DNA from: Phoronis australis
Taxonomy: Eukaryota; Animalia; Phoronida
Direction of reading: 5' to 3'
Length of the DNA: 64,000 nt
Assembly: GCA_002633005.1 (NCBI GenBank)
Contig: NMRA01000438.1
Location: 137,118 to 201,117, forward strand
In this document: one piece after another, positions 34,101 to 40,100 of the stretch
How the letters are laid out: every line of letters begins with the position of its first letter
Position numbering within the stretch: the stretch's first letter is position 1
Notes under the pieces: model-generated
Databases searched by the model: none
Told to the model about the DNA's origin: nothing
Seen by the model: the letters and a program-made list of their open reading frames with translations, nothing else
Program-made: the position numbers and the translations under genes

Positions 34101-37100
34101 AATTAAAATGACACAATACTAGCAAGCTACCGCAGTAAAAGACACAACAGACAATGAACATTGCTAAAAACATTCAAAACAACAACTCCGAGCAAATGCT
34201 GCAACATCTATTAAAAAGTAGATGAAAATGGAAACACGCTAGAGAAAAGAGCTTTTTGAATATGGTAAAAATTCTCCAATTTGGGTCAGTCTCTGAAATT
34301 TGGGACACAAAAATTTAAGCCAATATTGAATTTCCTCGATTCTGAAGACAGGAATTAATGGGCAATTTTGGTTTTCATCATATTTCTCAACTATTGGACA
34401 CTGCATTTTGTAAGAACAAAGTCTGAAATAAATTGTCAAAAATAGCTGCCAACACAAAATTTTTCTTTCTCGTAATTCTTATATGTCGCAACAGCCAACA
34501 TTGTCTATTTTTTTGAAATTTGGTACAAGCTTCGACTTTGAGCAAAATGATTAATTTTTCAGTGTCCAAACTAGAGAATTTTTCCCATAATTGAAAATGT
34601 AACACGTTCGAAAAAATCTTTTAACTACGATAAGGTTTCACTGATTCAGGACACAGCTAATTGTTACTGTATATTTTATTATCAACCTCTGGGGAGAAAC
34701 AAATTATTGTTTCAGCACAATCAGGTGCCCTCAACCGATCCTAGGACCAGTTCCAAAGATACTCTATACATACAACGAAGCTAATCAAGAAAAGTACTTC
34801 ATTTGCAATGCATGACAATATCTCACCAACACCTGCGTGAACTCGCCAATAGTCACTAATTGCACTTTCTCAGAAAAACACCAACTATGCAGCAACAACA
34901 TCTCATTAGTTTCATTGATACACTCTTTCTACCTCTGTCAATAGTTACATAATTTCTCAGGCAGAAATCAAGGTCATTTGTTTTGCCTCCCCTTTGCAGA
35001 CATGCAATAAGGGCGTGGGAAGAGTTAACTGAATTTTTCAGTTCCATGATGTCAGCAATACAATTAAGACCCTTAAAGTAAAGGAAACGCTTTTTGCCAC
35101 GAAACAACTGGTTTATTTACAAAGAGCACAGGAGGGACTGGTTGAGGGAATCTAAAAGTGGTAATATGAAACTTGCCTTCCATGCCAAAAAACAACCTTT
35201 TAGTTTCAACAACGTACCATAACCGCATCCGTCTCGAAGAACTCCTTAGTCAAACCAGAGGTGATTTTAAGGTTTCAAAAGAACTGACATTACGTCAGAG
35301 CTCAATACTACACTTGAGTTGGATCATCGTGCCACGTCACTTTATGTGGAGAACATGACGCTCTTCAAGAATGACGAATTGCCACCAAGTCCTTAATTGA
35401 CCCATAAATCACATTTCATCTCAAAAAGCAATAAGAGAAGACCACGATTATAGCGATTATAGCGGCAAGTCGTCTCAATAAAATGATGATTTCTTGGATG
35501 GAAGTTAGGTTAATAGTCACTTCAAATGAGAAGGACCAATTTAGGCACATCACAAACCTCATGAGCGTGTATTTTAAGCAGCAATTAACCTGCGCTTCGT
35601 TGGAAAAACCATCAGTTGTGTGCAAGACTAAACATCACTTCTAATCTATAGTAAAGAACAATTTGAGGTCAATTTCGTGACAGCAAATGGTCTAAAGTAA
35701 ACATTTCTGTTCTGTGACAGAAGGTAAGTTTAAAAAACACGCTACAGATATAAAGCAAATTTAAGAAACACTGGGTGATGCATCTGTGACCATCTCCCTT
35801 AAACTTCCCCATTAATAAACCAGCTCTGCTAGCCTGTAAGTGATAGCAAAGATGGAGTGATGAAAAGTTCAAAAACAAGTTACTGTAGTAACAAACATTC
35901 AGTGCTTGAAGGCATTGTGTACAGAGAAAATGTGCTGTGACTACGGCAAGAAGAGCATGCCACTGCTGTGGGAGCACACTGCCGACTGTTACTGAAAGTC
36001 GGAATTACTGGTAACAATAAACATGATTATTTCACTACTGCTGTGTAATAAGGTGAGGTGTTTGTTCAGGCATGCCGGGTCACTCACCATTAAGATAGCA
36101 TAGCCAAAGAAGGACTCATAGACCGTGACGCCGTTGGCCACCTTAGCTCTCATCCAATCGGGAGTTACGAATGAGATGATTAAAATCACTATCGGACTTG
36201 ATAAAAACCTGTCGAGCAATGGGGAAATAACAGACAGGGATACGTGCTAGACAACAATGATGTCTAAATTATAGGAAGTCATTTTAATCCAGGAAGTGAA
36301 GGCAGAGAAAAAAGTTATCAACAATCGCTAGGTCAGTTACTGTATCTATGTTCAGTTGAGAGCAGAGTTTTGTTCCGAAAGTACGAACGCAATGGAATAA
36401 AGACTGTGAACAATGAAAAGTGTCGTGCGCTTAACAAATTAATTCTGTATAACAACCAGACATAGAACAAGAAAAGGAAGATTTCGCAAAACGGCGGGAG
36501 TGAAAAACAAGGGTTTGGCAAGTATACTTGAAAGCTCCCTAGACTATATAGCAAAATGGTGGTGATTGGTCACGGAGGATGGAGTGTTGAATAACTGAAT
36601 AGAATTCATGAATGAAGGAATTGAATTTACAGTTCTGTTAAGTGAAGTGCATGCTAAGGCCTTGCAGTCTACAGAGAACAGCCTAGCTGCAATATTTTGA
36701 GCATTCCGTTGTAATTATTCAGTTGTCTGAAGTATGTACTATGAGTGATATGTAACCGATCACACAGGTAAAAGTGCAGGGTTTTAAAACAACAAGAAAA
36801 CCTTCATTTGCCATGTAAATCATCAGACTCACACAAGTAATATTTTAAACTACCGCATTTATTGTTTATTCTGTATTATCAATGGAAATGTGCTGATGTT
36901 TGTGTAATCTCATCATCCAGCCTTACTGAAAGAAATTCAACAACAAACACTGTCGACCTGAAAAGCTATTGCACTGTTTGTCTGCTGCCTGTAGACACTG
37001 ACCAGCTGCTGTAAAGCAACAAAGAATGTCTTGGCATTAACATCCAGACAAAACAATGTCTTACAGGCAAACGATGCACGGAGTGGTCCATCCTGAAACC

Positions 37101-40100
37101 GAAAACGCCGTCTAGTTAATGTGACATGACACCAAGCCATAACAAAAAGCTGCGGCAAAACAGAAAGAAACGTGTTAATGGCCACAACAATGGCAACTTT
37201 ACACAGGATCAAGATAGATTCATAAGCAGGGCGAAAATAAGCAATGTAAAATCATCATAGATGTCAAGGCAACATTTAGTTGATTCAGCAACAGGTCAAA
37301 CTTATTATATTTCATAACCAATTCATAGTAATCTTTGCAGCCATAATCTAGCTGCGGAACCGTCGGCTGAAACCTAGCAGCAATGTAGCAATTAATGCTG
37401 GCACAGTAAAAAACTGGTGGACTGAGATGATGACCTTGACATGACCTTGAGCGCAGGCAACCCGCTCTACACTCACCAGAAATATCAAATGTCCCACCAA
37501 CGTGACGGCGTTCTCGACACCGTTTACTACCTTTTCACGTATCCATAAGGGCATAGCGTGCATAGACACAAGGATGACAATCGGCCCTGCCCAGAACCTG
37601 TTCATAAAAATGCATATCAATCACTCAATGATCAGTAAAAGGTCGTTTTAATGATGGAGACATGAATGTGTTACGATAATCTTTCATTTACTTTCAACTC
37701 CAAATGGAGAGTGGTTTTCAAATAATGCAGATATCAACCTAACCAATAATGTTGACCCTTCCCAGCAGTCTAATTTGTCCAGTCTACACACACATTGATA
37801 CACAGGCCAGTTATCTACCATAATTCAAAGTGTTGTTAATGAACAAAATGGCAATGCCATAATAGCTCTGCTTCATCACACAATAGAACTTGGATCAACA
37901 TTCATGATGATGTCATGGGTTCTTGTAAGCTGTTTTCGTGCATATCTGCATACAAAGAACAAGAAACCATGGAATGGGTCATATTTCTGACACACGATAA
38001 CACTACAGTACAAACCAAAAGTAATCCGACACAACGTTTCTTAGTCACGGAAGCTAATTCCATTAACGACAAGAATGACTTAATAACCACCGAGGAAGCA
38101 GAATTGTAGTTGCAGAGTGACCGAACCACCTCGCTAACTTTCTGCTTAATTCCCATTCGGTCTCCGTCACTAGGGAAGGCTACAATGACAATACATTCCA
38201 CTTTCACTCGGCCGCCATGATTGGGAATTCCGAGTCATTTTGTCTGAATACTTTTGGAGTGTACTGCATGAAGTTATTGAAGACTCACCATATAGTATAG
38301 ACTATAAAGAAGGGGTAATAGAATGTTGACTTTTCTGGGTAGTGCTTGAGGGTGAAGAACGTGGCGTAGCAGAACCACACCCAACCGATGAGTCTCAAGG
38401 CTAGCAGGCCATAGCCGGCAGGACTCTCGTATAAATACAACACCAGACCTGGGTCGAAGAACTGTAAAGAAATTGCATTGACTTTAGAGTAAGGCGAAAG
38501 TTGACCTCGTTTTTACTAAGTACAAGCATGAAACATTTCATGCACGAATATGCCCCACTAGAAGAAACTAAACGTTAGTCATTAAAAGGCTACTCAATAG
38601 ACACATGGACAATGCTTAAACAAAAACAGCCTTCAGTTTGTGAAAGGAAAGCTTAAATTACGAAACAAAAACTAACATATTAAAGGCAAAGACAATATCA
38701 TGAAGAATTAAGAGTAAGCAATGGCCAATATTCCTGTCAACTGCTGCAGTATTGTTGTACTTGAAATATGTCCTTAACCAGAAACTTGAGTTAGGGCCTT
38801 TAATGGAAGCTACAAATCAAAAGTCTAAAGAATCTTACACAAACATGATGTACTTCTTTTGACACAATTAGTATAAACTTTATTTTACATTCTGCTCATA
38901 CAACAGCTGTAAGATACCTTCAACAGGTACTACAAGTATTTAAGTCATACAATACATACCATTGCTTCGTATAGGAACAAGATACAGTATGTGATGACGT
39001 ACACCGTGATGAAGACGGTGATCTTGATGGTGCCACTCTGACTCAGGCGGCCGCGAGTGATGGTGTACCCTTTAGCCATTAGGATCAGCATGAGTAAAAA
39101 GACAATGAGCCCAATGCTTTCAAATATACGACCTACACGGCAGGAGAGAATGGAAACAAATCATTGGTTTTTACAAATTTTATGTTGGCAACGCCCACCA
39201 CTCCTATAACAGTTTTCAAAATATTGTAGACAGACTTTGACAGAACTGACTTTGACAGAACTTTGGTAAACTGGGATAAGATTTTGTCAGAATTATTTGG
39301 TGGTTTCATCAAATTTTTGTCACAATAAAACAGTGTTTTTTGACAAACTTTTGTCAGATTTTAATGTGAAGTTATTGTGCCTAGTTGCTAATTGGTTATT
39401 TGGAGTTTCCCAGCAAGTTGTCGCACTTTGGAGAGCGTGGCTGGAGCAACACTTGTCGAGACGTTGACATTTAGCTAGAATTGTTACAGATTCTAGCCTA
39501 AAATAAATACATATTTAGTTGCAGTGTTGTGCTCTGAGCTTTACATCTCTCGCAGCAATTCTTGCAACAATAAAATTAATTGCAAAACTTGACATTTACT
39601 TTAAAGAAACACGCAGTGAAATCTTTGGGATCGGGTTTTGGACTGAAACAATTTTGGTTCTTTAATATTGCAGTTAGCACCTTCCACTTATTTTACACAA
39701 AAATAATTGCCAAATTGTCATTTTGTCATTTTCAAAGGCTGATTGCTTTGCTACAAACAATGGAACCTTTTAAATATCAAATATTGATTTATGATACGTC
39801 CACAGTACAAACTGTGCTTAAATTTTGCTTCATCTTTAGTCATTAATTTGTAGAGAACTTTGACAAAATAGCATTTCACTTTTTGGCCAAAATGTGTGCT
39901 ACACAAATAAAGAATATGTCATACAGACTGAGTTAAATGATTGCTTCTACAGGAAAATTCACCATGACCACCACTTTGATTCATTCAAGGGAGAAGTTTG
40001 TGTCTTCGGCCCGAAAAGGCGTTGCGTTGGACTTTAAATTAGAGAATACAGTTGTGTCTACATCTGATCCAAATTCTTAAGGTTTTGTGTACCCTTAATT

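Follow-up and report, generated by a model that had tools for sequence, protein, structure and literature searches.

Tandem mutually exclusive exons are a known mechanism; here they are found in an unexpected gene, a predicted TMEM145 orthologue in a 64,000-nucleotide stretch of the Phoronis australis genome (contig NMRA01000438.1 of assembly GCA_002633005.1, positions 137,118 to 201,117; this whole stretch is called the window and is numbered from its first letter). The nearest known case is coq-2 of molluscs and annelids: its exons 6a and 6e, described from helminths, molluscs and annelids, likewise belong to a membrane protein and are tandem, homologous and mutually exclusive, the pair is absent from mammals and the swap remodels the protein core (PMC7434440). 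In coq-2 it is one pair that has a proven biochemical switch (PMC7434440), whereas TMEM145 has three pairs, with different exons duplicated in different lineages and a function that is predicted. Equal-length mutually exclusive exons of independent origin in several invertebrate lineages are also described for the transporter mrp-1 (as cited in PMC7434440). mrp-1 belongs to a different protein family than TMEM145, however. Dscam1 and muscle myosin heavy chain reportedly have several independent exon clusters per gene and thereby combinatorial isoforms; by comparison, TMEM145 of Phoronis has only 2x2x2, and the docker/selector type of RNA pairing was not found for its exon 10 in the parts of the introns that were scanned.

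At the protein level, TMEM145 (described in mouse), TMEM87A, Wntless and GPR180 are GOST proteins and have the same GOLD domain on a seven-helix bundle. Mouse TMEM145 was recently described as a deafness gene (PMC12789471). Duplicated mutually exclusive exons are not mentioned for GOST proteins in the passages searched (the string 'splic' has 0 matches in the searched text of PMC12789471 and PMC11605061), TMEM145 is absent from the searched supplements of two human catalogues (1 file and 10 files), and one TMEM145 paper reports an alternate terminator in human liver cancer. The sequence-only reading of this DNA knew of no described mutually exclusive exons in TMEM145, and our literature search, which extended to neither subscription papers nor bioRxiv supplements, also found none. 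That reading described a single duplicated exon, exon 10, and the locus is richer than first noted.

Three tandem exon pairs and their splicing

The gene, like all exons given below, is on the minus strand; it spans ~55673 to 31100 and has 13 exon positions. Pfam identifies a PF21892 N-terminal domain followed by a PF10192 seven-helix domain, and the best named matches of exon 9 are TMEM145 proteins of annelids, Lingula and bivalves (74-86% over exon 9); judged by domains and best matches, the gene is a TMEM145 orthologue, nearer to TMEM145 than to GPR180. In a quick tree built from exons 5-9, with no GPR180 row among its sequences, the window protein is part of a 15-row lophotrochozoan group (support 90), where it stands beside two other proteins. 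Three exons are tandem-duplicated, 3a/3b, 4a/4b and 10a/10b, with copies of like length, same phase and canonical splice sites; scans with enriched profiles of all exons 2-11 (97-215 sequences per exon) found no further exon copies in 30000-57000. The two pairs that had been overlooked both encode parts of PF21892, the luminal GOLD domain: exons 3a (52594-52665, 72 nt) and 3b (52038-52112, 75 nt) are identical at 16/25 amino acids, exons 4a (43793-43990, 198 nt, E 4e-17) and 4b (43506-43706, 201 nt, E 4.9e-23) at 29/67. In the rebuilt gene model all eight combinations of the three pairs are open, with 520-522 amino acids, and three either-or pairs would allow one gene to build up to eight protein versions. 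The earlier picture of two receptor isoforms that differ only in transmembrane helix (TM) 6, the last luminal loop and TM7 is therefore too narrow: with three cassettes, as many as eight full-length forms can result.

The RNA evidence comes from three raw-read runs with the same species label (X1, X2 and X3; 18-19% of each run was read), and read counts are given in the order X1/X2/X3; exon joints were listed from a threshold of 3 reads from 2 starts, and the mapped region covered exons 3 to 13. Splicing of 4a/4b and of 3a/3b is one-or-other: 4a and 4b both join exon 5 (4a-5 in 5/6/0 reads, 4b-5 in 4/2/21 reads), and 3a and 3b both join 4b (3a-4b in 0/0/3 reads, 3b-4b in 0/2/18 reads), making 3b the major and 3a the minor copy; the 3a-4b joint shows the donor of 3a, while its acceptor is assigned from sequence. 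The double-inclusion joints 3a-3b, 4a-4b and 10a-10b are missing from all 13 joint rows, at low depth and with the 3-read threshold. The choice at exon 4 differs between samples (X1+X2 versus X3, Fisher p = 1e-05), with 4a dominant in X1 and X2 and 4b in X3; bin depths agree (4a ~21, 9 and 2-fold, 4b ~5, 2 and 20-fold in X1, X2 and X3), and the share of 4a falls from ~80% to ~10%. As X1 and X2 have variants in common that are not in X3, effects of tissue and genotype on this shift are inseparable. The joint into 4a was unreadable because the adjoining microsatellite was skipped in read mapping. This CT/CTGT microsatellite (43993-44088) lies directly upstream of 4a and could be its pyrimidine tract; variation in its length might shift the 4a/4b choice between individuals. 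A contig dataset, X4, gave repeat matches only.

At exon 10, both 121-nt copies, 10a at 37477-37597 and 10b at 36088-36208, have AG/GTGAGT splice sites and the same open frame, and they are identical at 16/40 amino acids in a gap-free alignment, all as the sequence-only reading had it. Both match PF10192 positions 187-224 (E 7.4e-05 for 10a and 1.2e-04 for 10b). 10a is the dominant form of exon 10: it is joined to exon 9 by 9/6/15 and to exon 11 by 12/7/15 reads. The claim that only isoforms with a single exon 10 are full length also holds in the full gene model: either copy alone gives 522 amino acids, while 10a and 10b together reach a stop 63 nt into 10b (439 amino acids) and skipping of exon 10 puts a stop codon where exon 9 meets exon 11 (377 amino acids). 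Both copies or neither copy of exon 3 or exon 4 keep the frame, unlike for exon 10.

Of the 40 codons compared between the two exon 10 copies, 23 agree at the first position, 26 at the second and 12 at the third (positions 1+2 versus 3, p = 0.0018). In 20000 simulations of neutral drift in which indels were not counted, an open frame and both splice dinucleotides were kept in 5.2%, 1.6% and 0.8% of runs at 0.5, 0.75 and 1.0 substitutions per site. Codon-position pattern and simulation both agree with the long purifying selection on both copies that had been proposed from their divergence, and indicate that the pair has been under long constraint; a recent silencing of 10b would be compatible with the same pattern.

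How exclusion works may differ between the pairs. At exon 10, the length of 121 nt is not divisible by three, inclusion of both copies or of neither truncates the protein, and nonsense-mediated decay would therefore purge such forms. Exons 4a and 4b are separated by an intron of only 86 nt (43707-43792, minus strand) that likely enforces exclusion sterically: its best branch-point-like adenines, predicted by motif, are 19-39 nt from the 4a donor. This is alike to the short intron between OGDH exons 4a and 4b, where mapped branch points are 25-41 nt from the upstream donor and thus below the steric limit of ~50 nt (PMC7969005); the OGDH branch points were mapped and those of TMEM145 are motif-predicted only, and the parallel does not apply to the 1268-nt intron between 10a and 10b. 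The 481-nt intron between 3a and 3b has a 31-nt inverted repeat pair (52196-52503) that folds more stably than 20/20 shuffles and has no other copy in the window. Competing docker/selector pairing around exon 10, a check proposed by the sequence-only reading, was not found in the intron parts scanned; the longest inverted repeats there belong to the termini of two small, related repeat elements, one in intron 9 and one in intron 10b-11. These elements, at 38006-38266 and 33431-33861, have inverted ends, are in opposite orientation (43 nt at 84%) and flank the 10a/10b cluster; their pairing would loop out both 10a and 10b, and their position is probably transposon chance.

The remaining exons are present once. 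Exon 1 (coding part 55551-55673) is assigned by a weak HMM match, the frame and a GTAAGT donor and encodes the predicted signal peptide with a putative start codon; exon 2 (53149-53223, PF21892 E 4.5e-08) starts the GOLD domain. Homologue mapping and RNA define the constitutive exons 5 (42412-42496), 6 (41422-41493, with TM1) and 7 (40543-40698), Pfam and RNA the constitutive exons 8 (38960-39132) and 9 (38289-38461, PF10192 E 2.6e-13, TM5 and the cytosolic half of TM6), and homologue mapping and RNA again the constitutive exon 11 (32976-33035, helix 8 region) and exon 12 (31620-31805, cytosolic tail). The coding part of exon 13 (31122-31190; joint in 4/5/30 reads) has its stop 66 nt in, and the 3' untranslated region continues beyond. 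Two intronic stretches, 41589-41627 and 36325-36430, match abundant transcribed repeats on both strands with a depth of up to ~240 reads, a signal that does not belong to the gene. Elsewhere in the window, 1-9900 and 10800-16200 are degenerate tandem arrays with units of ~1.4-1.6 kb that are 70-96% alike, plus a second family of shorter repeats; Pfam has no match to two frames of these arrays; apart from the TMEM145 exons, none of 8 long frames of the window has a Pfam match, and Rfam has no match to the window.

Duplicated and swapped exons in relatives

The sequence-only reading had proposed a search for duplicated exon 10 in relatives, and we found it both in metagenome loci and in annotated proteins of the same species. 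The 79 metagenome loci overlap with one another and include many paralogues and intronless records; 50 have a full exon 10, 37 span exons 9-11 and 14 span exons 3-5. Exon 10 is multi-copy in three of the 50: L001 and L034 have two copies and L075 has three, each of 121 nt with AG/GT, the second copy of L034 having weak splice signals. In the 14 loci spanning exons 3-5, neither exon 3 nor exon 4 has a full tandem copy.

Among annotated proteins, comparison of 16 same-species pairs identified exon 10 swaps between Mercenaria isoforms X1 and X2 and between Dimorphilus 6699 and 6701 (the alternative Dimorphilus protein ends just past exon 10), and comparison of 23 groups identified four more, in Mytilus galloprovincialis, Ruditapes, Ostrea edulis and one Logan cluster; in total, exon 10 is swapped in four bivalves and one annelid, beside the Logan cluster. 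RefSeq 'X' isoforms usually rest on RNA. Other exons are affected too: exon 4 is swapped in Dreissena, Mya and five Branchiostoma pairs, exon 5 in Ptychodera and Glandiceps and the TM1 exon (exon 6) in Lingula, while models of Paralvinella and Mactra chain three copies of exon 4 and one Dreissena model also chains copies. Five arthropod groups and Protopterus have no swap in the protein clusters examined, which are not a genome scan. Two exon trees, with 40 and 63 columns, place 10b beside copies from outside the lophotrochozoans and downstream copies of annelids, at a support of only 83/86 and 92/84; these trees are too short to separate a single from a repeated origin of the exon 10 duplication.

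Three further observations concern the wider family. In L066, L067, L068, L070 and L072, an additional intron interrupts exon 10 after ~residue 23 and the borders of further exons are not the same either; this lineage has a remodelled gene structure. P0122, P0140 and P0156 (333-423 amino acids) have two tandem TMEM145-type GOLD repeats with no match to the seven-helix domain and are possibly a secreted or GPI-anchored offshoot. L003, L029, L036, L046 and kin are single-copy paralogues with RAK or RSK and with Gln or Tyr at the position of the TM7 His, and in some of them TM7 position 32 is acidic; gene duplicates thus appear to explore the same changes as exon duplicates.

Structure and proposed function

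The exons were placed on a structure model (pLDDT 78) made for the Mercenaria orthologue rather than for the protein encoded in the window. It has a beta-sandwich GOLD domain on seven helices, the GOST architecture, and all 8 structure matches at E <= 0.001 are TMEM87A and Wntless. Exons 3 and 4 correspond to residues 60-145 of this model, which include two short helices and make up most of the beta-sandwich. Exon 10 corresponds to residues 369-408, with helices at 352-381 and 385-410: it had been described as the TM6-TM7 exon, which is right for the last luminal loop and TM7, but of TM6 only the luminal half is included.

As described earlier, 10a has the motif REK and a His in TM7 and 10b has RAK and Tyr. 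Neither change is confined to 10b: in our family comparison of exon 10 (42 rows), Ala is present at that position in 4/42 and Tyr in 4/42 rows. The TM7 positions that are polar across the family, 21, 25, 28, 32 and 36, share one face of the helix and are Glu, Asn, Glu, Thr and His in 10a and Ala, Asn, Thr, Ser and Tyr in 10b, which has Glu31 in addition; the alternative exon 10 of Ostrea edulis has RAK too, with Ala21 and Glu32. By these substitutions (Glu21, Glu28 and His36 to Ala, Thr and Tyr, and the new Glu31), 10b moves the polar stripe of TM7 and would alter the lining of a cavity.

In TMEM87A, the luminal domain sits on TM1, TM6 and TM7, and a cavity with its opening between TM5 and TM6 has TM7 residues in its lining (10.1101/2022.06.20.496907, 10.1101/2023.01.03.522544); in Wntless, the equivalent helix and loop shift to release Wnt (PMC13434646). 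In mouse TMEM145, the GOLD domain binds stereocilin and the seven-helix part binds tubby, and the protein has a role in secretion and anchoring (PMC12789471). From these related proteins and the polar stripe, we infer that the window protein has a luminal cavity with a TM5/TM6 slot that binds cargo or lipid. Exons 3 and 4 would then build most of the luminal GOLD domain, exon 10 would be the counterpart of the parts of TMEM87A and Wntless that form the cavity wall, contact the luminal domain and move as a gate, and the isoforms are predicted to differ in cargo binding or release by a Wntless-like carrier. Whether the cassettes do tune cargo binding or release is, in our estimate, close to a coin toss.

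Competing explanations and significance

Taken together, we consider it probable that the gene has three tandem exon pairs of which 3a/3b and 4a/4b are spliced one-or-other, as seen in RNA, while 10b probably serves as a minor alternative to 10a, mutually exclusive with it and used in certain cells or stages, with isoforms predicted to differ in cargo handling; that 10b is in use at all is probable, with strong indirect support from its codon-position pattern and from the copied and swapped exon 10 of relatives. Several data weigh against this. The earlier proposal to count junction reads at exon 10 returned the joints of 10a but none of 10b: the 9-10b joint is absent at the 3-read threshold from all three runs, compared with 9/6/15 reads for 9-10a, and 10b-11 is absent among the best 15 of 18 rows. 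The depth of the bin holding 10b is 0.94/0/0.41, which in X1 equals the intronic background of ~1.0 and in X2 is zero coverage. 10b is on a long branch (0.94-1.12), keeps the consensus at 10/17 conserved columns (14/17 in 10a), and has four residues seen in 0/42 family rows; its helical hydrophobic moment is also weaker than that of 10a (0.65 versus 1.59). None of 7 region pairs around exon 10, covering parts of the introns, beats all 20 shuffles in folding and none is strong for 10b; exon 10 is multi-copy in only 2/37 loci spanning exons 9-11, the other 35, many of them redundant or paralogous, having at most one full copy; and a protein search with 10b, a weak test, had 0/15 candidates scored. 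In addition, we know of no cargo of any invertebrate TMEM145.

The silence of 10b in the joints, its long branch, the loss of both TM7 glutamates, the Tyr-Glu in mid-TM7 and the weaker amphipathic moment would all suit an exon that was long a working alternative and is now silent or decaying, leaving exons 3 and 4 as the only live switches. We regard this as unlikely: splice sites, length and frame of 10b are intact, and X3 has ~236-242 sense-strand bases confined to 35824-36265 with neighbouring intron bins empty, which corresponds to about two reads, possibly of one molecule. Moreover, 3a is likewise absent from two of three runs and yet spliced in the third, only 18-19% of each run was read, and the oyster alternative exon has the same Glu21-to-Ala change with a later Glu. 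In these runs 10b is a minor form at most, about a tenth in X3. It is rather unlikely, too, that all pairs are spliced either-or with near-equivalent products, the exons persisting as redundant or regulatory units, even though many of the same residues are tolerated in single-copy orthologues, the venerid clam pair differs at only 9/40 positions and the arthropod and lungfish clusters have no swap: the copies are only 43-64% (exons 3 and 4) and 40% (exon 10) identical, the use of 4a shifts strongly between samples, clam and amphioxus variants are conserved across species and five different exons were duplicated in different lineages.

Cargo handling is also not the only function that could be tuned. 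The seven-helix fold, the change of acidic TM7 residues in 10b and the description of TMEM87A as a cation channel with an acidic vestibule (D441/D442) and a lipid-binding TM7 (10.1101/2023.01.03.522544) would fit isoforms that tune a signalling receptor or a TMEM87A-like channel. We consider this quite improbable, since another study reports TMEM87A to be without channel activity and without GPCR motifs (10.1101/2022.06.20.496907) and mouse TMEM145 promotes secretion of stereocilin and tubby (PMC12789471); the label 'receptor' given earlier to this protein is likewise doubtful, because, among solved structures, TMEM87A and Wntless are nearest to the family and the mouse protein functions in secretion and anchoring. 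Assembly artefacts, haplotypes or paralogue fragments as the source of the second copies have a negligible probability: the window does hold 1855 N, but these gaps are away from the duplicated exons, only three exons are doubled, the copies differ far more than alleles would (12/40 third positions identical) and relatives show the same duplications. For exons 3 and 4 an artefact is already refuted by their splicing to shared exons.

A wider reading, which we hold tentatively and against somewhat unfavourable odds, is that TMEM145 has been a hot spot where exons were duplicated again and again, in annelids, molluscs, brachiopods, acorn worms and amphioxus, with at least five exons (3, 4, 5, 6 and 10) turned into mutually exclusive cassettes. 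As all cassettes are in the luminal domain or in cavity-forming helices, one gene would provide a combinatorial set of cargo carriers, switched by cell type. If this is true, the cargo-binding surface of GOST proteins would be traceable from the residues that are swapped, and the TM7 with RAK and shifted glutamate, present here and in oysters, would be a convergent second gating state.

Several of these exon swaps are already present, uncommented, in automatic RefSeq isoform sets, and annotation with one model per gene misreads such loci, as in the predicted proteins of Paralvinella, Mactra and one Dreissena that chain two or three exon 4 copies. The cargo of the TMEM145 family is mostly unknown, and naturally occurring isoform pairs whose only difference lies in the GOLD domain or in TM6-TM7 offer ready-made swaps for studying the site of cargo binding and the mode of cargo release.

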